The notes beneath the pieces were generated by a model. That model saw nothing but the letters and a program-made list of their open reading frames with translations. It did no database searches and was not told the DNA's origin. The translations under genes and the position numbers were made by a program. A stretch of 44,301 nucleotides of DNA. It comes from Candidatus Nanoarchaeia archaeon (GTDB lineage Archaea; Nanobdellota; Nanobdellia; Woesearchaeales; DSVV01). The stretch spans positions 1 through 44,301 of the forward strand of contig JBMCCQ010000002.1 of the NCBI GenBank assembly GCA_048618745.1, read 5' to 3'. This document shows positions 10,865-38,328 of the stretch, piece by piece; position 1 is the stretch's first letter; each line of letters starts with the position of its first letter.

Positions 10865-11836
10865 TTAAAACAATGCACCAACAAAAAATCTGCTGATAAA
10901 AAATATTGTGACTGAGATGACTGCAATTATTGGTGCATATCTCAACCCGTAAGTTTTATTGCCCTCAGATATCACTCCCATTAAAATAGCAGAAAATATG
11001 GATGTTGAAAGCATTAATGCCATAGCAAGAACAAATATAAATTCAGAGGAGACCGCTACCTCTCCTGCCATGAGACCTAGCTCAAACTCTTCAGCAGCGG
11101 CAGCGCCACCACCACCCATACCCTCAATCATGCTTATAAACTGGATTGAAATTGCAAACAACAGAGGACTTCCGATTACCACAGTAAATAGAATAAACAT
11201 TGTGTAAGTCTTTGTGCCTGTAGTAAGATCCTTTTTCAGGCTTTTAGTTTCATTCATATCATTGGCAGTCTCCTCCATAAGCTCAGCCATGTGACTTCCC
11301 GAATAAAGTGAAGTAACAAAAAGGTTCACAACCCTGTCCAGAAGCTTAGAATCAATTGTTTCCTTAATTTCATGCAAAGCATGCTCAAAACTACCTGAGC
11401 CAAGCCCCTTGGTAGTTGCAATTTCTATTTCATCGCGCAGCGGACCAAACTCAGGCCTTGCAGCAGACTTAAGAGCCTGAAAAGGGGTAAGACCAGCTCT
11501 TAGGCTTGAAGAAACAATATGCAAAAAATCCGGCAGCACGCTCTCAACTTTATCCCTTCGGTCTTCAATTTTAAAATTAATAAGCAGCAGGTCAACCATA
11601 ATAATAAGGGGCAGAATAAAAATTCCCAGCGGCACTCCAATGAAAATGTAATCAGGATATAGAAAAACACCAGTAAATACATTGATAGCAAAGAGAGCTA
11701 TAAAAATCAAAATTGAAATGCCAAGTCTTTTTTCAGGATTTACTTTCAACCCTGAAACCTGTAGCTTACTTTTGTAATGCTCCTTTAGTTTACTCGGAAA
11801 AAAGCTACCTAATCCCTTTATCAGCTTAATTGTCAT
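10865..11836 (-). CDS. Type IV pilus platform protein, T2SSF domain (TadC/EpdK/FlaJ-C-like)
   Basis: LPDFLHIVSSSLRAGLTPFQAL T2SSF motif flanked by TM helices. 1-nt gap from the upstream platform gene. Confidence 0.8.
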   Translation of the reverse strand: MTIKLIKGLGSFFPSKLKEHYKSKLQVSGLKVNPEKRLGISILIFIALFAINVFTGVFLYPDYIFIGVPLGIFILPLIIMVDLLLINFKIEDRRDKVESVLPDFLHIVSSSLRAGLTPFQALKSAARPEFGPLRDEIEIATTKGLGSGSFEHALHEIKETIDSKLLDRVVNLFVTSLYSGSHMAELMEETANDMNETKSLKKDLTTGTKTYTMFILFTVVIGSPLLFAISIQFISMIEGMGGGGAAAAEEFELGLMAGEVAVSSEFIFVLAMALMLSTSIFSAILMGVISEGNKTYGLRYAPIIAVISVTIFFISRFFVGALF

Positions 11837-11837
11837 T

Positions 11838-12731
11838 TTAAAAGTTAATTGCCGGCCTCCTTGAATGTATTAAACCTATTATCACATACTGGACCAGTAA
11901 ACAAAGCACTCCAAATACTATAAAAAGTCCTCTTGTAAGGCCAAAACCGGAAAATGTTGTTAAAATCAGCATAAGTGTCAGACCAATAGTAGGAATCGCA
12001 ACCGCAAAAAGCATGTAAATAAGTGACCAAAGGTTTAACTCCTGGGCATAATTTCTTATTTTCTCCTTATGATTCTGCAGCTGCTCAGTTATTACAATCC
12101 TTAACGCTGTCTTAAGGTTGCTTCCGGATTTAAGGACATTAACAATCTGCCATACTGTACGTTTCATATACTCAGAACTTGTACGAAGAGCCATCTCTTC
12201 AAGGGCTGCTTCCAGCGGCCTTCCTGACTGAACCTGTTTTGCAACCTTTTCAAATTCCTTGCTTACTTCACCATAATCAGAATTTGCAATTGAAACCAAT
12301 GCATCATAAAGCTGTGTTCCTGCACTAACCTTTAATAATAGGTCTTTTAAAGCAAATATCAGGTTACTTTCAATTTTTTCAGCATTCTTACCTGCAACAA
12401 CTTTTGGATACCTTATTGTAACAACAGCAATCAATAGAAACAAAAACAATCCTAAGCCTACACTATAATATATGGCCTCAATAATTGGCCGTGCATCAAG
12501 GCCTACTATCAAAGCAAAAAGGAATATTCCTGAAAACAACATCCAGCAAAGTGCATTAAGAGTGACAAGCACAGAATAAGTGTCTTTGTCTGTACCCATA
12601 TCAGCTGTTCTCAAATCATCTTCCAGCGTAGGAAAAAAAGAATTAACCAGCCTGCTTATAATACTTAGTTTCTTTGAGACTTGTTTTGCCCTTATTTCGG
12701 GAAAATAAATAAATGGAACTCTTTGCTTCAT
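11838..12731 (-). CDS. Type IV pilus platform protein, T2SSF domain (TadB/EpdJ/FlaJ-N-like)
   Basis: T2SSF-like cytoplasmic domain (ALKDLLLKVSAGTQLYDAL...SGRPLEAALEEM) plus TM helices. 2-nt gap after the ATPase gene. Confidence 0.8.
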   Translation of the reverse strand: MKQRVPFIYFPEIRAKQVSKKLSIISRLVNSFFPTLEDDLRTADMGTDKDTYSVLVTLNALCWMLFSGIFLFALIVGLDARPIIEAIYYSVGLGLFLFLLIAVVTIRYPKVVAGKNAEKIESNLIFALKDLLLKVSAGTQLYDALVSIANSDYGEVSKEFEKVAKQVQSGRPLEAALEEMALRTSSEYMKRTVWQIVNVLKSGSNLKTALRIVITEQLQNHKEKIRNYAQELNLWSLIYMLFAVAIPTIGLTLMLILTTFSGFGLTRGLFIVFGVLCLLVQYVIIGLIHSRRPAINF

Positions 12732-12733
12732 TT

Positions 12734-14287
12734 TCAGGCCTCGCTTAGCACATCATAAATTGTTTTGTTCTGCCTTATAAATTCAAGAAGTTTTTCTCTG
12801 TCTTTATAGTAACTCTTCATAACCTTTCCAATAGAATCCGTTTTAAAAACCTCATTTTTAACCATCCATTCTAGTATAGTTTTGCGCTTATCAAGGTCTT
12901 CCTGCATTTCTTTAGGGGTCATGCCTGTCCTGAGGTTAAGATCTTCAACAATTCTTACGCAATCATCAACTTTTTCAAACGTATCTGATTTTGGCCGCCA
13001 TCTATATAAATAATTTACTTTGAGCTCATCGTCCATTATCCCTCCTCTTAAAACTTCAGCAACTTCAAGTGTTCTTCTCACATTTCTCTTTCTGTCCCTG
13101 TGTTGAACAAGTACAAGGTGCAGGGCCTCTGCCTCATTTTTAGGAATAGAAATTGGCGGTTCAAGAATTCTTCTTGTTAACTGCTCCACAGTGTCCGCGT
13201 GCATAGTTGTATACACACTATGACCTGTGTGCATTGCTTCAAACATAGTTTCTGCCTGCTCTCTTTTCCGGACTTCTCCTACAATAATCCTGTCAGGTCT
13301 CATCCTCAGGCTTGCTACAATCAGGTCAAGCATGCTTATGCTCCCTTCACCTTCTGTGTTTTCCTTACGACTAACCATTGGTATCCAATTCCAGTTCAAA
13401 TCCCTTGGAAGAACAAATTCACGGGTATCTTCAACAGAGATTATCCTCTGGTTTTTAGGAAGTAGAGCGCATAAAGCATTTAATACAGATGTCTTGCCCG
13501 AAGCAGTTCCGCCGCAGACAAGAATATTTAGCTCATATTCAAGTGCCTGCCAGAGTAAAGCAGCAATATCTTTTGTCATAACACCAAATTTTTCTGAAAC
13601 AAAATGTGTAATAGTCCATGGGCTTCTTGAAAACCTCCTGAAAGTAATTGTATTTCCTGAAGAGCTAATAGGAAAAAGTGTTGCTGCCACCCTGTCTCCT
13701 GAAACTAGATGAGCATCCATAATTGGATTCAGGTTATTAATCTCTCTGCCAACTTTTCTTCCAATCATTGCCGCATAATTATAAATCTGCTCTTCACTGT
13801 CAACATACGTTGTGGTTTTTAGCCATCCATAATGCTTATGATAAACTGAAATAGGCCTGTCAGAGCGGTTAAGACAAATCTCTTCTAAGAGATTATCAGC
13901 CATTATAATATCCATTTTTCCAAAACCATACATTGTCTGTACAATAATTCCTGCAATACACTTTTGCTCGGCAAGCGTAGAATTAGGAAACAACCCTTTT
14001 ACCTTGTCTAATGCGTTTATAAAAAATTTTTCTCGCAGTTTTTGAAGCTTAGTCGGATTGGTAATTTCCTCCTTAGAAACCTTTGTTTCAGAAGACAATT
14101 GGTTCATAATGTCAACAATTAAAAGGTCAGTCTCCTGGGACATATTGGGAAGCTTAACATCATAAATTGCTACATTTTCCCCCCAGACTTCACTAATTGT
14201 AACCTTGGCAGGGACATGGTCAGAAGTAACCTCATATGATTCAAGCACCTTTCCTTCAATTGGATGAATGCTGCTTCCCTTAGCCAT
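12734..14287 (-). CDS. Type II/IV secretion-family assembly ATPase (FlaI/ArlI / EpdL / TadA-like)
   Basis: Walker A CGGTASGKTS, Walker B-like RIIVGEVR, His-box TMHAD. Size and domain order match archaeal T4P ATPases. Confidence 0.9.
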   Translation of the reverse strand: MAKGSSIHPIEGKVLESYEVTSDHVPAKVTISEVWGENVAIYDVKLPNMSQETDLLIVDIMNQLSSETKVSKEEITNPTKLQKLREKFFINALDKVKGLFPNSTLAEQKCIAGIIVQTMYGFGKMDIIMADNLLEEICLNRSDRPISVYHKHYGWLKTTTYVDSEEQIYNYAAMIGRKVGREINNLNPIMDAHLVSGDRVAATLFPISSSGNTITFRRFSRSPWTITHFVSEKFGVMTKDIAALLWQALEYELNILVCGGTASGKTSVLNALCALLPKNQRIISVEDTREFVLPRDLNWNWIPMVSRKENTEGEGSISMLDLIVASLRMRPDRIIVGEVRKREQAETMFEAMHTGHSVYTTMHADTVEQLTRRILEPPISIPKNEAEALHLVLVQHRDRKRNVRRTLEVAEVLRGGIMDDELKVNYLYRWRPKSDTFEKVDDCVRIVEDLNLRTGMTPKEMQEDLDKRKTILEWMVKNEVFKTDSIGKVMKSYYKDREKLLEFIRQNKTIYDVLSEA

Positions 14288-14290
14288 AGC

Positions 14291-15595
14291 CTACATTTTC
14301 CTCCTTTTTGTTTTTCTGGTTGCTTTTTTAGGAGAGCCCCGGGTAGTTTTTTTCGTTGTCCTTTTTTTAGCTGTTTTGTTGGTAGAACTCTTAGCAGCCT
14401 TATTTGACTTGACTTTGGATACTGAAGAACCCCCTCTGGCTGTTTTCTTAGTTGATTTTCTGATTGATTTTTTGGTAGAACTGCTGGCCAAAGTTTTTGA
14501 TTTGCCTGCCTTTTTTGTGGATTTTTGTGTGCTCTTTTTTGTACTTGTTTTGGCTGTCTGCGTTTTAGTGGATGACTTCTTCGTCCTTTTGGGTGCGCCT
14601 TTATTTGCTTTCTTTGTGGATTTATGGACAGGTTTTTTTGTTTTATAGGATGAAGATTTTGTTTTGGCCTTTTCTTTGGTTGTTTTTTTGGTGGAACTTC
14701 CAGCAGCCTTTTTAGTTGAACTTGTTGAAGATTTTTTCGCCGAAAGTTTCTTTTCCAGGCTTTTTATTGACTTGGTGAGCTCAGCAATTTTTTTATTGCC
14801 CTGATTAATCATTTCCTTAAGCTCGTTAATCTTTTTATCCTGTTTATTCTGGACATCTTTTTGCTCCTTGTTTTGTTTTGCATTTTCCTTCACATTTCTC
14901 TGAAGTTTCTCAATTTCCTTGATTATTGCTTTGTCATTGCGGGAAAGCTCTTCAGATGATTTTGAGATATTATCAGCTTTTTTATCAATATTTGAGAGAA
15001 GATTACTTACGAGGCGCTCTATATTATCTACACTGCTTAACCTTTTTTCCAGCCCGTCGGTTTTATCATTAAGCTGAGCAATAGCCTCCTCCACCTGTTT
15101 AAAGGTTTCCCTGTTCTCGTCCTCGGACTGCTTGAGTTGATTTTTCAAATTTTCAAAATGCTCAAAAATAAGTTTTAAAAAGCTAGCACTCTTTGCCTTT
15201 CCAACAAGCTCTTGCTGATTGGTATTCCTCAGATTTTCCGGGTTTTCTTGATTTCCTGTCTTTTTTGGAATATCTTTTGTGCCAATTTCCTGACTCTGGC
15301 TATCTTCCTCAGGTTTTTTTCCATTTTTTTCAGCATTTGGAGTTGTAATTTCCTGGTTTTGCTCCTTTGGTTTTTCCTCAGGTTGCTGCTGATTTTGTTG
15401 TTCACTTTTTCCCATAAATCCAAAAAAGCCCTTTTTTTGCTGCTTTTCAACCTGTTTCTCTTCAACAGTATAATCACTTTCCTTTTTTTCCTCTGCATGC
15501 TCTTCTGATAACCCACCAGCCTGGGCATGTGTTCCACAGTATGGACAAAAAACATCATCAGCACCCAGATCCGCTTTGCAGGATGGACATTTCAT
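14291..15595 (-). CDS. Zinc-ribbon / coiled-coil protein with 150-aa Lys/Ser/Thr-rich basic tail (histone H1-like low complexity)
   Basis: N-terminus CPSCKADLGADDVFCPYCG, then a Q/E/K-rich linker and heptad-like coiled coil. The C-terminal 150 aa (14294-14743) is made of STKK/SPKK-type repeats. Confidence 0.7.
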   Translation of the reverse strand: MKCPSCKADLGADDVFCPYCGTHAQAGGLSEEHAEEKKESDYTVEEKQVEKQQKKGFFGFMGKSEQQNQQQPEEKPKEQNQEITTPNAEKNGKKPEEDSQSQEIGTKDIPKKTGNQENPENLRNTNQQELVGKAKSASFLKLIFEHFENLKNQLKQSEDENRETFKQVEEAIAQLNDKTDGLEKRLSSVDNIERLVSNLLSNIDKKADNISKSSEELSRNDKAIIKEIEKLQRNVKENAKQNKEQKDVQNKQDKKINELKEMINQGNKKIAELTKSIKSLEKKLSAKKSSTSSTKKAAGSSTKKTTKEKAKTKSSSYKTKKPVHKSTKKANKGAPKRTKKSSTKTQTAKTSTKKSTQKSTKKAGKSKTLASSSTKKSIRKSTKKTARGGSSVSKVKSNKAAKSSTNKTAKKRTTKKTTRGSPKKATRKTKRRKM

Positions 15596-15940
15596 CTACT
15601 TCACCTCTTTTCCGCATTTAGTACAGAACTTTGCATTTTCTTTTAATGGATTACCACAATTAGGACAGGCATTTTTCGGTTCATTGCTTTCAGGCATCAC
15701 TTTCTTTATTCTATCAGGCTTTTTTTTATCAGCTAAAAAATATACAGGCGAGCCAATTAAAGGATACTTAGCCTTAATCTTTTTTGCCCTGCTTAAGATT
15801 TCAGCATATTTTTGTACATGCTTTTTATCAAGATTAAGACTCTTGCACACGTAAGGTTCAGAAACCGTTCCTTCTTCTCTTATTAATCCATAAAACTTAT
15901 CAATATCTGTTTGAATAGTATGAAGCTCTTTAGTATCCAT
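15596..15940 (-). CDS. Small protein with a possible winged-helix N-domain and C-terminal zinc ribbon
   Basis: C-terminus CPNCGNPLKENAKFCTKCG. The N-terminal 70 aa has an HTH-like pattern (SEPYVCKSLNLDKKHVQKYAEILSRAKKI...YPLIGSPVYF). The wHTH call is tentative. Confidence 0.5.
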   Translation of the reverse strand: MDTKELHTIQTDIDKFYGLIREEGTVSEPYVCKSLNLDKKHVQKYAEILSRAKKIKAKYPLIGSPVYFLADKKKPDRIKKVMPESNEPKNACPNCGNPLKENAKFCTKCGKEVK

Positions 15941-15955
15941 TAGTTTCCCCCTTTT

Positions 15956-16777
15956 TTAATCAGCCGTCAGACGAATTGTGTTACTGCCGGAAAAATTGTT
16001 TTTTTTATCCCTGATTATTGTATTCCCCCCCGCATTTAAATATATTTTGCTTTTATCTGCATTCTCCATTTCAAGCCTTAGATTAACCTCTGCCTCTATA
16101 TCCCTGTACGCTGTTACATCCATAATACTGTTGGTTACGTTAACGAAGAAAAGAGGCTTAGGTTCACTGCTGTTAAAGATGACAGAAAAAAAATTATCCC
16201 CGCTAATCTCAATGTTTCTGTTTCGCTCCAGCAGTATTTGGCCATCGCTATCCAATACTTTAAGAAATAACTCTGTTTCTCCGGATTCATAGGATTCATT
16301 TGTATTGTTTAAATATGAGGCACCGTCGCTTAATTCCGCTGTAATATAAATGGAGGAAACATTCTTATTTATCCTGCTTCTGTGAAGATAATGATTTTTA
16401 GTAAAATTTAACTTAAAAGGCGACAAAATGTAGTTTGGGCTTAAATTCAGCATAACATCAAGATTATTCGCCTGCGCATAATAATTCTCAATGTAATGTG
16501 TATATTCATTTAATAAAAACGAGGGATCCTCACGCTCCCTTGATAATATGAACTCTTGCTCAAAACTCCTCTTGGAAAAATCAATTATTTCAAATTCCAT
16601 AATATCAATAAAATTTACTGCAATTGTATTTTCAATCTGTTTTAATTTGGTTGAGACCATACTCTCAGAAAGCATGTTTTCATAATCAGCTTGCCGCTGC
16701 ATGATAGCAACTGAAGTCATAACAAGGCCTCCAAGCAAGACAATCATTAAAATACTGTAGAGCAATGATTTTTTCAT
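15956..16777 (-). CDS. N-terminally anchored extracytoplasmic protein, pilus-associated by context
   Basis: MKKSLLYSILMIVLLGGLVMTSVAIM anchor. 4-nt overlap with the upstream pilin-like gene. Asn/Ser-rich beta-type body. Confidence 0.5.
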   Translation of the reverse strand: MKKSLLYSILMIVLLGGLVMTSVAIMQRQADYENMLSESMVSTKLKQIENTIAVNFIDIMEFEIIDFSKRSFEQEFILSREREDPSFLLNEYTHYIENYYAQANNLDVMLNLSPNYILSPFKLNFTKNHYLHRSRINKNVSSIYITAELSDGASYLNNTNESYESGETELFLKVLDSDGQILLERNRNIEISGDNFFSVIFNSSEPKPLFFVNVTNSIMDVTAYRDIEAEVNLRLEMENADKSKIYLNAGGNTIIRDKKNNFSGSNTIRLTAD

Positions 16778-17181
16778 TTATACCACATCTCAATCTCTGC
16801 ATTGTAGATATCCTGCTCATAAATAAAGGGCATTGTAGCAATAGCTTCATCTTCGGGACTTTGAAGCTCACACCCGGGTTTTATAGCATTAAAAGACCAT
16901 TCACGGTCCTTATTTGCGATGGTAACATTAGCGCAAACATTATATGATGTGTATTTTTGCAGAAAAATTGAGACATGCTCAACTCTGCCTGCCATTACAG
17001 CATCTGCGAGCAACCCCTTATGATTCATCAGATTAAGTGTATCATACGCAGTATATTCAAGTTTATTATTATCCATATCAAAATCAATCATAAAAAAAAC
17101 ACTGGTAATTGCGGTTAATACCATAACTGTAGCAATCAATGCATCCAATGAAAACAGTATCCCGCGTTTCAAGTAACACAC
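16774..17181 (-). CDS. Class III signal peptide (prepilin-like) protein, minor pilin candidate
   Basis: MCYLKRG/ILFSLDALIATVMVLTAITSVFF: a short basic leader, Gly, then a hydrophobic helix. Confidence 0.6.
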   Translation of the reverse strand: MCYLKRGILFSLDALIATVMVLTAITSVFFMIDFDMDNNKLEYTAYDTLNLMNHKGLLADAVMAGRVEHVSIFLQKYTSYNVCANVTIANKDREWSFNAIKPGCELQSPEDEAIATMPFIYEQDIYNAEIEMWYK

Positions 17182-17744
17182 CCTTTTAGTATTATCCTAT
17201 ATATATCATTAGCATTCCCTGAAGCCAGCCTTTCATGTTGACTTGTTATTTCACATCCCCCCATATAACCAATTTCCCATGAATCCGTTACATTGTAGCT
17301 TGAATTAAACCTTTTTACATTCAGTTTGAATTCATACCCCGGACCTCTAACTCCAAGCAAAGTCTTAATATCTTCATAACTTTCATTATGGTTTAAGGCA
17401 GCCACCTTATCCTTATCAAAATGGCCGTATCTGCCTGTAGTCAACCCCAGCGAGCTGATTTTTTCTGCATCAATTGAAGAGTAATCACTCCAGTTATACG
17501 GCTCGCCTGGATGAGTCATCAGGCTTTCTAAGGCATAAGCGGTTACAAGTTCAAGGTCATTAGCTTTTTCCTCCTGCTCAAAAGAAAATCGTACATCATC
17601 CCAGAAAACTACTAGGGACAGAAAAATAGTAATAAATATCACACCAGATACAATAAAATCTACTGAGTGAACCTGCCCTTTAGTCAAGAACAATCCTATC
17701 ACCCTCATTAACAATGCTGTTTTGCCCAATTTCCAACTCCCCAC
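17169..17744 (-). CDS. Class III signal peptide (prepilin-like) protein, minor pilin candidate
   Basis: ...LTKG/QVHSVDFIVSGVIFITIFLSLVVFW. The start is ambiguous: GTG at 17744 or ATG at 17708. Confidence 0.55.
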   Translation of the reverse strand: MGSWKLGKTALLMRVIGLFLTKGQVHSVDFIVSGVIFITIFLSLVVFWDDVRFSFEQEEKANDLELVTAYALESLMTHPGEPYNWSDYSSIDAEKISSLGLTTGRYGHFDKDKVAALNHNESYEDIKTLLGVRGPGYEFKLNVKRFNSSYNVTDSWEIGYMGGCEITSQHERLASGNANDIYRIILKGCVT

Positions 17745-18078
17745 TAATCTCAGATGTCAGCACAGGATAAGTATAATGAATATCCTCAAGCGAAATAACA
17801 ACCTCTCTGGAGTCCCCTATAACTTTTAATGAATAATTGCGGCTATGAATATCTTGAGGAAGGTATAGCTCTGCTTTTGAATTGTTTCCTGCCAAATGCA
17901 CATCATTTATGGTAAGTCCAACCCTTTCAGCGATTGTTTTTGCCTCAAGACGAAGAGCAGTATTGTCGAATTGACTGTTTTTATCCTGAATTAATGCAAA
18001 AAAAGAAAGAAATATTATCAAAAGTATTGCAAGTATAAGGGTAAATTCAATTGTCGCCTGAGACTTTTTTAAGGACAT
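17680..18078 (-). CDS. Class III signal peptide (prepilin-like) protein, minor pilin candidate
   Basis: MSLKKS/QATIEFTLILAILLIIFLSFF, with Glu at about +5 of the predicted mature end. Confidence 0.6.
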   Translation of the reverse strand: MSLKKSQATIEFTLILAILLIIFLSFFALIQDKNSQFDNTALRLEAKTIAERVGLTINDVHLAGNNSKAELYLPQDIHSRNYSLKVIGDSREVVISLEDIHYTYPVLTSEISGELEIGQNSIVNEGDRIVLD

Positions 18079-18908
18079 GATGAATTATCACCTATACAGC
18101 TGCCCTGGAAACAATTCCCCCATCTTCCTCCTTTGCAGCTTTCATAACATCCTGAGCCATCAGATCCATCCTCACACCAGGTGCATTCGCTATCCAGAGT
18201 GCATTGGGCGCAAGAACCCCTTTCCGTACACTCTTCAGGAAGACATTCCATTGCAAGGTCACAATCAGGATCCTCACAGTCAACGTATCCGTCGAGGTCA
18301 TTATCAATATTGTCTGAGCAGTCCTCTCCTGGATATGGTGAGCAGTCGCTTGTATCAATCATGCAATTACTACACTCCAGCTCCCCTGATTCATAGCCAA
18401 AATATTCACAATCCTTGCCCCCGAAATTCGTCCCGTCGCATTCTTCACCCGAATTAATTATTCCGTTTCCGCAGTTTTCATAATCATCCCAGATTGCGCT
18501 TATATTTTCAGAAATTAAAACAACACCTAAGCCTGAACCAACCTCCAGCCATAAACCCCCTTCTCTTGTAGGAATTGAACCCGCCACATCATACTTAAAA
18601 GATGTGTGTTTTTTCCCGCCGTCATTAGAGGATATTTCAATTGTTTTATTTTCTAACGTTATGTTTTCAATATTCTCCGGCAAATTCACAAATATTTTCT
18701 TTTTTGAGCCTACACCTTCCCGGTAAACCTCGTTAGCTGTAGAGTGAATTTTTTCAAGAGCTGACTCTGCCTTTTTTTGACGCATAACAGTTTCATAATT
18801 ATCCATTGCCCTGTCTGAATAGCTTATGATTGCAATCACTACAATTAAGGATACAGCAAGCAATAATATTAATTCTAGACTTCCCTGTGCACGCTTCAAA
18901 CACCCCAC
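18069..18908 (-). CDS. Pilin-like protein with C-terminal Cys-rich module (myxo-type CGNG..GEECD repeat, DNDxDG acidic repeat, PSI-like CxxC...CxWC)
   Basis: N-terminus MGCLKRA/QGSLELILLLAVSLIVVIAIIS. The C-terminal ~140 aa contains about 24 Cys: CGNGIINSGEECDGTN..., DCSDNIDNDLDGYVDCEDPDC, CAQCTLDSECTWCEDG. Confidence 0.7.
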   Translation of the reverse strand: MGCLKRAQGSLELILLLAVSLIVVIAIISYSDRAMDNYETVMRQKKAESALEKIHSTANEVYREGVGSKKKIFVNLPENIENITLENKTIEISSNDGGKKHTSFKYDVAGSIPTREGGLWLEVGSGLGVVLISENISAIWDDYENCGNGIINSGEECDGTNFGGKDCEYFGYESGELECSNCMIDTSDCSPYPGEDCSDNIDNDLDGYVDCEDPDCDLAMECLPEECTERGSCAQCTLDSECTWCEDGSDGSGCYESCKGGRWGNCFQGSCIGDNSSCP

Positions 18909-18914
18909 CTCTTT

Positions 18915-19958
18915 TTAATAAACGTTTTCTTCCGGATAAACAGTTATCCCGTCTGAACTGATTTTTAAAGGGTTAATCTTTGTTGAGTGACTCGTCCCCC
19001 TCATCTTAAATACTTCTATACTTCTCTCTCTGACATCCTCTTTTTTAGTATGATACATATAAATTATTCCTTCCGACTGGAATTCTTCCATTGTTGCTGA
19101 GTATACCTCTGGCTTTACAGTGTGCTCTGATATTAAAAGACTGGTACAATCCCATTTCTTAAGTATTTTGAACAAAGACATTAATGCGCGCCTTCTCTGA
19201 TTTTCATTTTCATAAAGCATAGAAAATGCAGTAATGGAATCAATCACGACCCTTTTTGCATTTATCTCATCAATAACTTCCCTTACAGGCCCGCCTCCAA
19301 TATAAAGTACCCTGTCAACCTGCTCAGGCGAATAATATAGTATTGCCAGCTGCTTGTTCTTTAGCTTCTCTTCTATTCCCCAGTTAAAACGCTTCATGTC
19401 TTCTATCAGGCTTTCAACATCCTCCTCAAATGTTATATAAACTCCCGGCTCACCGTATCTTTCAATACCATTTATAAGTGTCTGCATAGCAAAAATGCTT
19501 TTTCCAGAGCCGGGTCCCCCGCAAACAAGCGTAACTGAATCTCTTATAAGCCCACCTTCAATAAGCTCATCAAAGCCTTCAATACCCGTAGGTGTCCTTG
19601 GAAGGGTAACAGGGGTTTCTTTCACACCCCCCTCTTTTAGTGAATCCTTAACAGTTGACTTTAAAAAGGCCATATCAATTTTTTTATTACTAGGCTCGGA
19701 ACCGGTTTTAATATTTTTCATAATCTCTTGTTTTAATCCTGAGAAGGGTGAATTCTTGCGAGACTTAGAAGACGTTTCATTTTTTATTTCGTTTTTAAGG
19801 CCTGAAAAAGGAGAATTGTTTTTGGCTTTTCCTCCAGTATTCATATCTTTTTGTATATTTTCTTTTAGTCCTGCAAAAGGGGATTTCTTGGATTTTTTCG
19901 CAGACTTGGAATTAGCTTTACTTTTAGTACTTTTTTTGCTTTTCTTTGTGTTTGCCAT
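18915..19958 (-). CDS. KaiC/RecA-superfamily ATPase (ArlH/FlaH-like) with basic N-terminal extension carrying 3x SPF[AS]GLK motifs
   Basis: Walker A GGPGSGKS, Walker B-like RVVIDSITAF, single KaiC-like domain. The N-terminal 110 aa is low complexity with three repeats. Confidence 0.8.
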   Translation of the reverse strand: MANTKKSKKSTKSKANSKSAKKSKKSPFAGLKENIQKDMNTGGKAKNNSPFSGLKNEIKNETSSKSRKNSPFSGLKQEIMKNIKTGSEPSNKKIDMAFLKSTVKDSLKEGGVKETPVTLPRTPTGIEGFDELIEGGLIRDSVTLVCGGPGSGKSIFAMQTLINGIERYGEPGVYITFEEDVESLIEDMKRFNWGIEEKLKNKQLAILYYSPEQVDRVLYIGGGPVREVIDEINAKRVVIDSITAFSMLYENENQRRRALMSLFKILKKWDCTSLLISEHTVKPEVYSATMEEFQSEGIIYMYHTKKEDVRERSIEVFKMRGTSHSTKINPLKISSDGITVYPEENVY

Positions 19959-19961
19959 GGT

Positions 19962-19983
19962 AAAAAATATAAAAAAATTAAAA
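19962..19983 (-). terminator. Oligo-T tracts (T6, T7, T4 on the coding strand) directly after the major pilin stop; candidate partial archaeal terminator
   Basis: Plus-strand A runs at 19962-19967, 19971-19977 and 19980-19983, between the pilin stop (19989) and the KaiC-like ATG (19958). Confidence 0.3.
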
Positions 19984-19988
19984 TTGGT

Positions 19989-20462
19989 TTATTCGGAGTT
20001 ATCGGGGTTAGCACACTCTCCTGTAAGCTGCTCTCCATCACCATCCATTGTGTAACTTGAACCACTTTGCTGGTCCTCATAGGTTATTTCCAATGGATAT
20101 GAGAAACTCTCTCCGGCACTACAATCCAAATCATCGTCCTCTAAGGTAATGGTTGTAGACCCACCTGGCCCTAGTGTCCTTTCTTCACTATTATTAACAT
20201 CATTCAAACTTACATTCTCTACAGTTACTGCATTCCTCAGGTTATTCTTAAGACTGAGAGTAGCATTTCCTCCTTCATTCACCGAATACGATGAAATACC
20301 TATATCCTGGGTGGACCAGTAGGCCTGTGCACCCCTCTCACTGGTACTCTCCCCAATTCCGGGGAATCTTCCCATTGCCACTACAACTACCAGGGCAATT
20401 ACTATCACAACAGCCAGAATAATCAAGTATTCTGTGGCTGTCTGACCTCTTTTTCCTTCCAT
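19989..20462 (-). CDS. Major pilin candidate, class III signal peptide (DUF361-like)
   Basis: MEGKRG/QTATEYLIILAVVIVIALVVVVA, a small (157 aa) Ser/Thr/Asn-rich body, and the strongest SD in the operon. Confidence 0.8.
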   Translation of the reverse strand: MEGKRGQTATEYLIILAVVIVIALVVVVAMGRFPGIGESTSERGAQAYWSTQDIGISSYSVNEGGNATLSLKNNLRNAVTVENVSLNDVNNSEERTLGPGGSTTITLEDDDLDCSAGESFSYPLEITYEDQQSGSSYTMDGDGEQLTGECANPDNSE

Positions 20463-20470
20463 ATTTTATC

Positions 20471-20477
20471 CCTCCTT
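20471..20477 (-). promoter_or_regulatory. Shine-Dalgarno AAGGAGG, 8 nt upstream of the major pilin ATG
   Basis: rc of cctcctt at 20471-20477. Confidence 0.55.
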
Positions 20478-20484
20478 TGTTTTT

Positions 20485-21018
20485 TTATTCAACTTTCTCC
20501 AGTTTATCCACAAACATGCTAAGCTTTTCAATGATGTTTGCTTCATCATTGCCGTCAAGACAAATGAGTATGAATTTAGAGCTTTTTGCTCTCAGCTTAT
20601 TTATTAAATCTTTTGTAAACTTTATAATCATCTGCTCAGGGTTATATATTAACAGAGTTGAAAGGCTGTCAAAAAAGACAAACTTCGGCTCAGAGGCCTC
20701 CACGACCTTGTTTATCGCAATTGAGAGGTTTGTAAGAGCTGAGGGGGACTCAATAAAAAGGCAGTTATCAGCTTGTGGGTCCTCCTTGCCTGTCATTTTA
20801 GTTGAAGTGTCGATAAAAAATATATTATCAGTATTAACCTTTTGTTTTTTAAATGATTCAACCAGCGATTGATAAGGCCGGCTTAATGCTACATATGAAG
20901 ATATATTTTTGCCTAAATAATTTTTGGTAAAGGACCTAACAAATTCCTGGTACTTGTCATGCTTTACTACAAAAAGCATTACCTGATTGTTCTCTATGTC
21001 CTCCTTATAATCCATCAT
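20485..21018 (-). CDS. KaiC/RecA-fold-like protein lacking a P-loop (predicted inactive paralog)
   Basis: FVFFDSLSTLLIY parallels RVVIDSITAFSMLY of the neighbouring KaiC-like ATPase, but there is no GxxGxGKS/T. 4-nt overlap with cheC-like. Confidence 0.4.
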   Translation of the reverse strand: MMDYKEDIENNQVMLFVVKHDKYQEFVRSFTKNYLGKNISSYVALSRPYQSLVESFKKQKVNTDNIFFIDTSTKMTGKEDPQADNCLFIESPSALTNLSIAINKVVEASEPKFVFFDSLSTLLIYNPEQMIIKFTKDLINKLRAKSSKFILICLDGNDEANIIEKLSMFVDKLEKVE

Positions 21019-21638
21019 TCCTTCACTTTTTCATTTATTATTTTTAGTAATGTTTTAAATGACTTGTGCGTCAATAGAAGAATGCTTTGCCCTGAAATTT
21101 CATTTTTGCCAATGTTAAACCTTGTATCAATTTCAATAAGTATCGCATGCTCACTGTCCTTTTTCAAATCAAAAAATACATAATCATATATCTGGCTCCC
21201 AAAAGACGGAACGACTGTAGGTACACTATGCCAGGCATCAACACCAAGGAATTTATTGAGAATCCCTAAGACTTTACCTGCAACCATATTTCCTATCTCA
21301 CCTAAAGTGTTTTTAACATCTTCATTTACAATTTTTGTGGAAGTTGTCCTTCTTTTTTTCAGGGCATCATAAAGATTTAGTGCTGAATCCTTTGGAAATG
21401 CTAGCAAAATGTTGCCTTCCAGGTCTCCTTTTTGAATGTTTGAATAAATACCAAGGTGCATTACGGGCTCTTTTTCAGCATCCGTTTCCTTTTTATCCAG
21501 AGATACTATATCCTTATTTAGAACTTTTAAATCAACCGGGCCGCCGGTAAGTTTACCCATCGTCATTGAGATATGCTGGGAGAACATATTTGTAATCTCC
21601 ATAAGTGCATCTCTTTCAACCTTTGTTAATTTGACCAT
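21015..21638 (-). CDS. cheC: CheC-family (CheC/CheX/FliY) CheY-P phosphatase-like protein
   Basis: First site ERDALMEITN fits D/S-x3-E-x2-N. The second, NTLGEIGN, is a degenerate copy. Size about 200 aa. Start overlaps the cheY stop (TAATG). Confidence 0.65.
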   Translation of the reverse strand: MVKLTKVERDALMEITNMFSQHISMTMGKLTGGPVDLKVLNKDIVSLDKKETDAEKEPVMHLGIYSNIQKGDLEGNILLAFPKDSALNLYDALKKRRTTSTKIVNEDVKNTLGEIGNMVAGKVLGILNKFLGVDAWHSVPTVVPSFGSQIYDYVFFDLKKDSEHAILIEIDTRFNIGKNEISGQSILLLTHKSFKTLLKIINEKVKE

Positions 21639-22024
21639 TAAGTCTGCACCCGCTTTAAGTTGTTTTCAATTGCCTTTGCAAGCTCATCATCTGCAAAAGG
21701 CTTACTAATATACCCTGCCGCACCCAGCCTATTGGCCTCATTCCTTAACTTTTTCTGGTCCAGCGCAGAAACTATTATACAGATGGTATTTGAATATTTT
21801 TCCTTAATCTGCTTTAATACCTCAAGGCCATCCAGTCCATACATGTTTATATCCAGGAATACCACGTCGGAGCCTTCCGAGTCAATAACTTTTAATCCCT
21901 CCTCGCCAGAAGATACAGATTTTATGTTCTTATAGCCGAACTTTTTCAGATTATCAGCTATCAACTTACGCATGAAATCAGAATCATCTATTACAAGAAT
22001 CCTCAGCTCTTCCTTTTTTCCCAT
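21638..22024 (-). CDS. cheY: CheY-like single-domain response regulator
   Basis: LVIDDS (acidic pocket), FLDINM (phospho-Asp), VSA (Thr/Ser), SKPF (Lys). 128 aa with no output domain. Confidence 0.85.
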   Translation of the reverse strand: MGKKEELRILVIDDSDFMRKLIADNLKKFGYKNIKSVSSGEEGLKVIDSEGSDVVFLDINMYGLDGLEVLKQIKEKYSNTICIIVSALDQKKLRNEANRLGAAGYISKPFADDELAKAIENNLKRVQT

Positions 22025-22137
22025 TTTGCAAGACAGTCTCTGGATATACTTATACTTACTTTTAAAGTCATTTCCTGTTTTTATCTTTATAAATTTTATG
22101 GAAATTTTAGTTTAAGAGCTAAATAATTAAGAAATTA

Positions 22138-37107: not shown

Positions 37108-37896
37108 TTATGTTAATGCTGCAACACTGTTTTCTTTGGTAATCTTGCTTTGATGCTTCTCATCATTTAAAACATTAAGCACAAGCTTATTATAATCCTC
37201 GGCACCTCTGCTTCCCTTGGCATACCTGAATATGGACATATGCCTTTCGGGCGCTTCCTTCAATCTAGCATTCACACGTATTGGCTCCGAGATTATATCA
37301 TAATAAATGTTGTTCATTATCTCCAGTGTCTTTTTGCAAACCCTGTTTCTTTTGTCAAAAAGTGTAGGTACAATTTTTGTAACTTTTAAAGTATGACCAA
37401 ATCTCTTATTTGTTTTCTCAATCATTTTCAGGGTATTACTGGTGCCGCGCAGACCGAGCACATCAGTAGAAGTCGGCACAACAGCCTCATCTGTTGAAAG
37501 AATTGCTAAGTCGCTTAGCGGACCCATCATTGGAGAGCAATCAACAACTACATAATCATAACCACTAATACCTTTCAGTTTCTTTGCAAATTTATTCAGG
37601 TTTGACTGCGTTTTAGCCATCTCTGTCTCAATCTCCACAAGACTTTCCTTAGCACCAAGCAAATCAAGGTTTTTCCCCAAGTTTGTTACACACTCCTTGA
37701 TTTCAACTTCACTTGTAAGGAAATCATACAAATCATAAGCACTTATGGACTGCAGACTAAATGTTGCATTTCCTTGTGGGTCAAGGTCTACCAGCAAAAC
37801 ACTTTTCCCTTTTCTTGACAGACCGGCTGCAAGATTTACAGCAGTTGTAGTTTTCCCTACGCCGCCCTTTTGATTTATTACACATATTCTTCTCAT
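37108..37896 (-). CDS. parA: ParA/Soj-family deviant Walker ATPase
   Basis: NQKGGVGKTTTAVNLA deviant Walker A and VVVDCSP Walker B region. Confidence 0.85.
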   Translation of the reverse strand: MRRICVINQKGGVGKTTTAVNLAAGLSRKGKSVLLVDLDPQGNATFSLQSISAYDLYDFLTSEVEIKECVTNLGKNLDLLGAKESLVEIETEMAKTQSNLNKFAKKLKGISGYDYVVVDCSPMMGPLSDLAILSTDEAVVPTSTDVLGLRGTSNTLKMIEKTNKRFGHTLKVTKIVPTLFDKRNRVCKKTLEIMNNIYYDIISEPIRVNARLKEAPERHMSIFRYAKGSRGAEDYNKLVLNVLNDEKHQSKITKENSVAALT

Positions 37897-37935
37897 AATT
37901 ATCCTCTCTGTTATGCTTATTGTAGTCCCTCTTTT

Positions 37936-38328
37936 TTATTTCATTTTCTTAGTGATCCCGATTTTTTCCTTGCAATTTTCACAAACAAACACATAAGCGG
38001 GAACACCCTTAAAAGTTCTTCTTTTATACTCTGTTGTGGTTTCTCCTGAATGTCCGCAATGCGGACACGTATATGCTATTTCTACAGTAAGTTTCGGTTC
38101 ATGCTCCTTTTTCTCTTCCTTATAACCACACTGGCCACATACATATTCGGTAGCCCTCCTCTTGATTTTCCCTTTCTCTACAGGTTTACCCATTGTACCC
38201 TCTTTGCATTCAGGACACTCCAACCTGTACGCCCAGGCTTTCAGTTTGCCGTTATTCTCAAGAGTTCTGTTAGTAAAATATACCAACTCATGCATACCTT
38301 CGGGATGTCTTAAAGCCATTTTCTTCAC
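37936..38328 (-). CDS. Double zinc-ribbon protein encoded immediately upstream of parA
   Basis: CPEC...CGQCG and CPHCG...CENC pairs, basic overall. GTG at 38328 or ATG at 38319. Confidence 0.55.
   Translation of the reverse strand: MKKMALRHPEGMHELVYFTNRTLENNGKLKAWAYRLECPECKEGTMGKPVEKGKIKRRATEYVCGQCGYKEEKKEHEPKLTVEIAYTCPHCGHSGETTTEYKRRTFKGVPAYVFVCENCKEKIGITKKMK

Follow-up and report, generated by a model that had tools for sequence, protein, structure and literature searches.

A non-archaellum type IV pilus operon of Woesearchaeales carrying CheY and CheC-like genes and a predicted inactive KaiC-fold protein

The window considered here is a 44,301-nucleotide (nt) stretch, analysed at its full length, of contig JBMCCQ010000002.1 (GCA_048618745.1) from the DSVV01 lineage of Woesearchaeales (DPANN), with a G+C content of about 37%. 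At positions 10865-22024 it holds 15 minus-strand open reading frames (ORFs), in which genes for a stand-alone chemotaxis-type receiver (CheY), a CheC/CheX-like protein and a P-loop-less, apparently inactivated KaiC-fold protein (hereafter iKaiC) head a set of type IV pilus genes (Table 1). On balance, it appears probable that this is a non-archaellum pilus operon whose CheY/CheC-like:iKaiC module switches the pilus via a second KaiC-family protein and/or the motor ATPase. The original prediction of 15 tightly packed genes was borne out, with its coordinates, order and overlaps, by an ORF listing over 9.5-24 kb and by Pfam and NCBIfam models, whose scores were read against the cutoff of each model. 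The order is CheY, CheC/X-like protein, iKaiC, major pilin, KaiC, five pilin-like proteins, two Zn-ribbon proteins, PilB/TadA-type ATPase and two TadC-like proteins. Neighbouring genes are spaced by -65 to +30 nt, where the value of -65 nt hinges on the uncertain GTG start of the gene for a 191-amino-acid (aa) protein. The stop codon of cheY and the start codon of the cheC-like gene share 1 nt (TAATG), and the cheC-like stop and iKaiC start share 4 nt (ATGA). The remainder of the window consists of housekeeping genes (its right half annotated by Pfam) and contains no tRNA or Rfam features. Among its other ORFs of at least 100 aa, no CheA, CheW, MCP, histidine kinase, A24 peptidase or Arl protein was detected, in agreement with the original remark that ArlF/G/C/D/E/X, CheA/W, MCP and prepilin peptidase genes are lacking.

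Table 1. Features of the pilus operon and related elements of the window; identities are those of the proteins of relatives to the window protein
Feature	Coordinates	Strand	Model scores and motifs (a slash marks the site in the signal)	Identity in relatives
Intergenic region 5' of cheY	22025..22137	-	TATA-like box AAATTTATAAAG about 60 nt before the cheY start	
CheY-like stand-alone receiver, 128 aa	21638..22024	-	Response_reg 100 bits	41-46%
CheC/CheX-family protein, 207 aa	21015..21638	-	CheX (PF13690) 46 bits and CheC (PF04509) 34 bits, both above cutoffs	55-60%
iKaiC, DUF7504-like, 177 aa	20485..21018	-	Pfam KaiC 22 bits and DUF7504 23 bits, both below cutoff	63-77% (67-77% in the five relatives with the operon)
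Major pilin candidate, 157 aa	19989..20462	-	KRG/QTATEYLIIL; Class_IIIsignal 21 bits (cutoff 23.7)	45-58%
Pilin-kaiC gap, T-run then TATA-like spacer	19959..19988	-	ACCAATTTTAATTTTTTTATATTTTTTACC	
Single-domain KaiC-family ATPase, 347 aa	18915..19958	-	PF06745 216 bits	62-67%
N-terminal tail of KaiC, residues 1-120	19600..19958	-	three SPF[AS]GLK-x2-I copies	
Cys-rich pilin-like protein, 279 aa	18069..18908	-	Class_IIIsignal 27 bits; acidic double-disulfide repeat	
Four small pilin-like/anchored proteins, 132, 191, 135 and 273 aa	15956..18078	-	KKS/QATIEF, KG/QVHSVDF, KRG/ILFSLD, MKKSLLYSILMIV	25-42%
Helical N-terminal domain and C-terminal Zn ribbon, 114 aa	15596..15940	-	Zn_Ribbon_1 35 bits	
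N-terminal Zn ribbon, coiled coil and very Lys-rich tail, 434 aa	14291..15595	-	Zn_ribbon_3 24 bits	
PilB/TadA-type assembly ATPase, 517 aa	12734..14287	-	T2SSE 107 bits	66-78%
Two separate TadC-like platform proteins, 297 and 323 aa	10865..12731	-	T2SSF 67 and 51 bits	48-74%
MinD/ParA-like ATPase, then small Zn-ribbon protein	37108..38328	-	AAA_31 150 bits; DUF7560	

For transcription, the 15 genes probably form one operon with two transcription units, cheY-cheC-iKaiC-pilin and then kaiC through tadC, as suggested by the T-runs followed by a TATA-like stretch 3' of the pilin gene in the window and in every relative carrying the operon. The spacers of the relatives are comparably T-rich and 70-88 nt long, and the spacer of the window may combine an attenuator with an internal promoter. 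Relatives also show A/T-rich TATA-like elements upstream of cheY, and the box found at this place in the window may serve as the promoter of the first unit.

Judged by the sequence of its proteins, the operon encodes a non-archaellum type IV pilus, as originally predicted. Class III signal pilins, a T2SSE ATPase and a T2SSF/TadC platform occur in one locus, as is generic for archaeal type IV pili. The ATPase scores 259 bits with the ArlI model NF058587 (cutoff 550), the platform proteins reach at most 40 bits with the ArlJ and UpsF models, and iKaiC does not match the ArlH model NF052589 and obtains 16 bits with the older FlaH model NF004723. None of the pilin-like proteins matches the archaellin family PF01917 at E<=0.1, which agrees with the prediction that no archaellin is present. 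As a control, the true Arl proteins of the relative L001 (GCA_051819785.1, JBNJGV010000004.1) score 718 bits for ArlI, 242 for ArlH and 461 for ArlJ. Their cluster, located at 14238-21551 of that contig and composed of ArlJ, ArlI, ArlH, two ArlF/G-like proteins and archaellins, is convergent with, and directly follows, the same pilus operon; in the window, this position is taken by an acetyltransferase gene and a flavodoxin-like gene. The window ATPase is 34% identical to the ArlI of L001, and it does not nest within ArlI, an outcome that would have spoken for an archaellum. In a neighbour-joining tree of 249 core columns, the Woesearchaeal pilus ATPases are monophyletic with 100% bootstrap, and the S. 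acidocaldarius FlaI and the L001 ArlI form a separate group, likewise with 100% bootstrap. This tree and that of iKaiC, described below, are simple distance trees, and the deep branches of the latter carry no support values.

An ordinary archaellum locus, or an artefact of annotation or assembly, therefore deserves almost no credence as an explanation. It is true that the JGI pipeline labels homologues of the ATPase as 'FlaI' and those of iKaiC as 'FlaH', and that ArlI is the top curated NCBIfam model for the window ATPase. However, the ArlI, ArlH and ArlJ scores lie far below their cutoffs, whereas the true Arl proteins of L001 pass or nearly pass them; the archaellin domain is absent and the platform is split; and the same architecture recurs on independent contigs from NCBI, JGI, the European Nucleotide Archive (ENA) and Logan. 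On these scores, the lack of an archaellin and the tree position of the ATPase, an ordinary archaellum was ruled out.

For the structural parts of the pilus, the best match of the ATPase among PDB sequences is the A. fulgidus GspE2 (2OAP, 232 bits), followed by FlaI (191 bits) and CpaF (126 bits). At its C-terminus there is a weak PilB3_C match, recorded in precomputed annotation of several homologues too, and this gives a hint of the euryarchaeal clade 2 described by Makarova, Koonin and Albers (2016). Homologues of this ATPase number in the thousands, and nearly all of the named ones are labelled Woesearchaeota, Nanoarchaeota or Nanobdellota; one, from a genome labelled 'Nanoarchaeota archaeon', is 100% identical to it. 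Five of the N-termini in the operon show the pattern [KR][GAS]/x4-5[ED] followed by a hydrophobic stretch, and the 157-aa major pilin candidate occupies the same position in relatives. The 279-aa Cys-rich protein aligns over 192-283 residues to parts of adhesin-like pilins of 1296-1504 aa in relatives, which bear Laminin_G_3, DUF2341 and Gly_rich domains, so that the window genome appears to have a shortened version of a tip-adhesin-like protein. The four small pilin-like proteins are syntenic in relatives, including L013, which lacks Che genes, and L004, and none of them matches a Pfam family at its cutoff; the 132-aa protein has a sub-threshold match to DUF7266 (16 bits).

At 14291-15940, the two Zn-ribbon genes resemble one accessory protein that has been split and elaborated. 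Relatives encode a homologue of the N-terminal domain of the 114-aa protein in front of the ATPase, and there it bears a long Lys-rich tail (194 aa in L001 and 762 aa in L004). BLAST finds no homologue of the 434-aa protein in relatives, in which Lys-rich tails comparable to its own sit on the protein preceding the ATPase or on the N-terminus of the ATPase. In addition, an N-terminal segment of four distant Woesearchaeal ATPases (P0015, P0033, P0073 and P0091) resembles the 114-aa domain, by eye only. Farther from the operon, the MinD/ParA-like ATPase and DUF7560 pair is encoded 15 kb off in the window and upstream of the pilus operon in the relative L006; FleN/MinD-type ATPases are proposed regulators of archaeal pili.

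The 347-aa KaiC-family protein is a generic single-domain ATPase, predicted to be active by its intact Walker A (GGPGSGKS), catalytic Glu pair (TFEE) and Walker B (VVIDS) motifs. Its single domain sets it apart from the two-domain clock KaiC. The original prediction described it as archaellum-style and ArlH-like, a label that does not hold, as the protein scores 188 bits with the NCBIfam KaiC model, 166 with KaiC_arch_3 and 51.5 with ArlH (NF052589, cutoff 215); orthology to ArlH was rejected on this basis. Its N-terminal tail is rich in Lys and Ser. The SPF[AS]GLK motif of the tail occurs in 1-3 copies in all six operons of the CheY/CheC type, and was found neither in the KaiC of L013, which lacks Che genes, nor in about 3050 ORFs from 80 other iKaiC loci. 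Its role could be that of a docking motif, or it could just mark the clade.

For the signalling genes, the CheY-like receiver retains the residues expected of a functional phospho-acceptor domain: D13, D14, D58, and a Ser, Tyr and Lys align with D12, D13, D57, T87, Y106 and K109 of E. coli CheY. All six proteins compared, that of the window and five orthologues, keep these phospho-acceptor and switch residues. The best NCBIfam model is CheY_Halo at 74 bits (cutoff 200), so the protein falls outside the archaeal CheY equivalog, and its gene lies outside any che operon. The CheC-like protein belongs to the CheC/CheX/FliY family and is a predicted phosphatase. Compared with the family active site [D/S]-x3-E-x2-N-x22-P, its second site has the full N-x3-E114-x2-N117-x22-P140 motif and its first site keeps E14-x2-N17 with the Pro missing, both being invariant in the clade.

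The iKaiC protein lacks a Walker A motif. By its predicted structure it is a degenerate, catalytically dead KaiC-fold protein, in accordance with the original description of a P-loop-less KaiC-like protein. The AlphaFold2 model, built from 79 homologues, has a predicted local distance difference test score of 95 and a predicted template modelling (TM) score of 0.90, and Foldseek aligns it best with PH0284 (TM 0.76), and further with KaiC, PH0186 and S. acidocaldarius FlaH, all with probability 1.0. Against the DUF7504 model PF24336 the window protein scores 23.3 bits (cutoff 27), and its homologues carry PF24336; a weak DUF835 match was also recorded (21 bits, E=2.6e-4). Across relatives its identity is comparable to that of the motor ATPase, and this dead KaiC is thus about as constrained as the motor itself. 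The family comprises 929 representatives of 50%-identity clusters at E<=1e-30 and 2612 at E<=1e-10, and the close type to which the window protein belongs is made up of 14 full-length protein clusters of 53-99% identity; no mention of DUF7504 was found in the literature.

Several members of the iKaiC family have other surroundings. P0270 is a natural fusion of KaiB, V4R and iKaiC domains (456 aa), and several proteins of 580-850 aa carry an iKaiC domain amid regions without a Pfam match. Genes of the DUF7504 type head clusters in an Aenigmatarchaeota metagenome-assembled genome and on a 1.1-Mb archaeal contig (L097:6707-17279 and L014:10001-17966, respectively), which contain a PAS protein, solute-binding proteins, a HAMP-HisKA kinase and a receiver. 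The cluster of L097 runs on into a KaiC and a large Laminin_G_3 protein.

In all close relatives found, the Che genes keep their synteny with the pilus genes; conservation of gene order was one of the checks originally proposed. Five distinct relatives (L001/L011, L002/L003/L012, L006/L007/L010, L008/L009 and L015) carry the operon, which makes six operons with that of the window; the relatives are represented by nine overlapping loci in NCBI, JGI and Logan. Genomes bearing the operon include GCA_051819785.1, GCA_964593285.1 and GCA_964405675.1. The shared order is receiver (REC), CheC, iKaiC, pilin, KaiC, adhesin, four small pilin-like proteins, accessory protein, ATPase, TadC and TadC, the end of it from the accessory protein onwards being seen only where the contigs of the relatives reach. 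Of the encoded proteins, the ATPase of L001 is 78% identical to that of the window. Upstream neighbours vary among relatives (a Lon-like protease, ribosomal protein L44e, or a rhodanese with Rpr2), and the Che genes are therefore part of the operon rather than of a neighbouring locus. A further contig with a 66% identical ATPase (L004) ends upstream and is hence uninformative on the Che genes.

The pairing of iKaiC with pilus genes extends beyond the CheY/CheC-type operons. In L013, which is without CheY and CheC, the locus encodes iKaiC, KaiC, an adhesin, four minor pilins, the ATPase and two TadC proteins, with a homologue of the major pilin encoded divergently; its ATPase and iKaiC are 56% and 37% identical to those of the window, respectively. 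A scan of metagenomes with the iKaiC alignment yielded 80 loci, which were annotated by hidden Markov models built for the analysis. KaiC adjoins iKaiC in 24 of the 66 metagenomic loci with enough flanking sequence, and among the 13 with at least 6 kb on each side, a pilus ATPase with two TadC genes is present in 7 and an adjacent KaiC in 10. On the evidence of these gene neighbourhoods, the Che genes were probably added to a core of iKaiC, KaiC and pilus genes that is older.

The link between CheC and iKaiC also recurs outside this clade. In L045, L046, L048, L064 and L080 a CheC-family gene lies directly upstream of iKaiC, and the iKaiC proteins of these loci are 31-33% identical to that of the window and fall in a different sub-clade of the simple tree. 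L080:149-10537 (Ga0315276_10000681, MFH0869546.1) is a complete chemotaxis operon ending in iKaiC, in the order CheB, CheA, CheY, CheY, CheC, REC-CheD, CheR, a gene of unknown function, Cache-MCP, CheW, CheC and iKaiC. Its iKaiC gene overlaps the last cheC and the product scores 41.7 bits with DUF7504; no CheF is visible within the 11.6 kb of L080. In addition, full-length CheC-like and full-length iKaiC domains are fused in frame in P0352 (385 aa) and P0312 (396 aa), with different linkers. These neighbourhoods and fusions point to a CheC-like:iKaiC physical unit that would act downstream of a receiver. Other archaea are known to have response regulators in which REC is fused to iKaiC or to DUF835 (PMC5847659).

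The original prediction treated the pseudo-KaiC as a side detail, and this assessment has to be revised. Its conservation at the level of the ATPase, its pairing with KaiC and pilus genes in Che-less relatives and its pairing or fusion with CheC elsewhere are evidence that points to iKaiC as the central coupling element. In the mechanism considered probable here, a kinase from elsewhere, either CheA or an orphan histidine kinase, would phosphorylate CheY; the CheC-like protein would bind CheY~P and eventually dephosphorylate it, thereby resetting the signal. The CheC-like protein and iKaiC would work together as a unit, with iKaiC handing its state to the KaiC ATPase, the pilus motor ATPase or both. 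This might take the form of a mixed KaiC/iKaiC ring, or of a dock beneath the motor by analogy with the docking of ArlH on ArlI. As a result, pilus assembly or activity would be toggled, for instance in regulated attachment to a host or a surface.

The main alternative that was considered is a different target for the same signal, namely that CheY, the CheC-like protein and iKaiC control the archaellum or general chemotaxis, with the pilus genes merely sharing a promoter region, perhaps in a switch between swimming and attachment. This is unlikely, although three observations favour it: the arlF/G-H-I-J and archaellin cluster of L001 is convergent with and adjacent to the pilus operon; the CheC-iKaiC pair of L080 is the end of a complete che operon, and the 11.6 kb of this locus are free of pilus genes; and the archaellum is the sole established target of archaeal CheY (PMC7289035, PMC4858521). 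However, translational coupling through overlapping start and stop codons, with the major pilin gene embedded between iKaiC and KaiC in six operons of differing flanks, and the many Che-less loci where iKaiC is tied to KaiC and pilus genes argue against it. Moreover, arl genes are absent from the 44-kb window, and CheF or ArlCDE, the known link between CheY and the archaellum, was seen in none of the loci examined.

It is also conceivable, if rather improbable, that KaiC and iKaiC constitute a generic signalling hub for expression or timing, in which the CheY/CheC-like pair is one interchangeable input and no role as a motor adaptor exists. The size of the family (929 representatives at the stricter threshold), the KaiB-V4R-iKaiC fusion and the DUF7504 genes of L014 and L097, which stand beside PAS sensors, histidine kinases, REC and KaiC and apart from pilus motors, would fit such a hub; KaiC-like ATPases have been proposed as general signalling hubs, as quoted in PMC5847659, and the H. 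volcanii CirA is a KaiC-like repressor of motility. On the other hand, the genes sit within a structural operon and not by a DNA-binding regulator, the ArlH-ArlI precedent indicates that KaiC-like proteins can act directly on such ATPases, and the conservation of iKaiC matches that of the motor ATPase.

Several points weigh against the proposed switching of the pilus by the CheY/CheC-like:iKaiC module. The window and about 10 kb of upstream sequence in relatives contain no kinase, CheA, CheW or MCP, and a complete chemotaxis set (CheA, CheW and MCP with CheY) was likewise not encountered in the window or the flanks of relatives; the source of CheY phosphorylation is thus assumed. No prepilin peptidase of the PibD/EppA type (Peptidase_A24) occurs among the window ORFs of at least 100 aa, and it could be encoded elsewhere. 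The CheC-linked clade is small: two narrow peptide patterns drawn from the CheC-like alignment, which do not amount to a census, hit 3 of 185,579 GTDB species representatives. Degenerate catalytic motifs are frequent in the CheC-like partners of iKaiC from other lineages. A phosphatase step may hence not apply throughout, and in those lineages dephosphorylation of CheY~P may count for less than its binding. The hhalign comparison of the iKaiC alignment with that of the operon KaiC gave an insignificant probability of 1.5%, and the iKaiC profile found nothing better than E=0.3 among PDB sequences, with FlaH at E=0.41, so that the relationship between iKaiC and KaiC rests on the predicted fold. 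The true archaellum adjoining the pilus operon of L001 means that CheY could act on the archaellum there instead. Finally, the proposed physical contacts among CheY, the CheC-like protein, iKaiC, KaiC and the ATPase are deduced from sequence, predicted structure and gene context.

In comparison with known archaeal pili, Makarova, Koonin and Albers (2016) reported KaiC-family ATPases in several pilus loci (those of the archaellum, of clade 2 and of subclade 4B), a pair of tadC genes for clades 1 and 2 as well as DUF2341 adhesins for clade 1, and found no evidence of chemotaxis systems regulating pili besides the archaellum. The operon shares with the pili of clade 1 (Epd-type) and clade 2 (PilB3/PilB4-type) the class III signal pilins, a VirB11/PilB-family ATPase, two tadC-like genes, several minor pilins, KaiC-family genes in or next to the operon and, in relatives only, a large DUF2341/Laminin_G adhesin. 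It differs from them in the translational coupling of CheY/CheC to the operon and in the iKaiC partner, and its ATPase forms a Woesearchaeal clade of its own in the tree, with the A. fulgidus GspE2 as the best solved relative. The Epd locus of Methanococcus (clade 1) has two TadC proteins, a DUF2341 adhesin, at least five minor pilins and EppA, with a major pilin of about 70 aa encoded elsewhere. The window likewise has two TadC and five or more pilin-like genes, whereas its major pilin is 157 aa long and encoded in the operon, EppA is absent, and the DUF2341/Laminin_G_3 adhesin is full-size in relatives only and 279 aa in the window. Since two tadC genes are also common in the euryarchaeal clade 2, the split TadB/TadC platform, which the original prediction took as a mark of Epd, was dropped as evidence of Epd membership.

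The likeness to the archaellum motor lies in the combination of a KaiC-fold protein, a PilB-family ATPase and a TadC-family platform, together with a CheY receiver and a CheC-family protein. In contrast to the single ArlH of the archaellum, two KaiC-fold proteins are present here, one active and one dead by prediction, and archaellins, ArlF/G, CheF and ArlCDE are all absent. Pil-Chp, Tax/Pix and Frz are bacterial systems for the chemosensory control of type IV pili. As here, single-domain CheY-like receivers are wired to a type IV pilus in Pil-Chp (PilG/PilH), in the Synechocystis Tax/Pix and in the Myxococcus Frz systems; the present locus is archaeal and has neither CheA, CheW and MCP nor a PilT retraction ATPase, and the bacterial systems do not use the KaiC-fold coupling proposed here. 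The REC-iKaiC and REC-DUF835 regulators (Galperin et al. 2018) similarly join a receiver to an inactivated KaiC-fold domain, whereas in the pilus operon REC, the CheC-like protein and iKaiC are separate and translationally coupled, and the natural fusion partner of this iKaiC family is CheC and not REC.

The pilus and the KaiC are thus of known kinds, and the CheY-CheC-iKaiC wiring is the new part. No description was found in the papers that could be read of CheY/CheC genes in a non-archaellum archaeal pilus operon, of the iKaiC partner or of CheC-iKaiC pairs, and a 2022 survey reported no chemotaxis systems in DPANN. Of the hybrid machine originally envisaged, a Che-wired non-archaellum pilus stands, while the ArlH-like label and the novelty of a KaiC in such a pilus do not, the latter having been reported in 2016.

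Archaeal chemotaxis-type signalling is known only for the archaellum, via CheF and ArlCDE, and the operon, together with the CheC-iKaiC pairs and fusions, provides a concrete candidate for another output route that uses KaiC-fold proteins, and with it a possible function for a large uncharacterised family of about 930 50%-identity clusters at E<=1e-30. A broader and distinctly tentative extension is that CheC-like:iKaiC (DUF7504) is an unrecognised chemotaxis-type output adaptor, coupling CheY~P to type IV filament motors through KaiC-fold interactions and, in this Woesearchaeal lineage, placing a non-archaellum pilus under fast phospho-signal control; it would then fill the role that CheF/ArlCDE or FliM have elsewhere. 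If true, this would be the first chemosensory control of a pilus in Archaea, and it could underlie the directed attachment of DPANN episymbionts to host cells or their release from them. For DPANN, the operon suggests that pilus attachment to a host or surface is actively signalled rather than constitutive.

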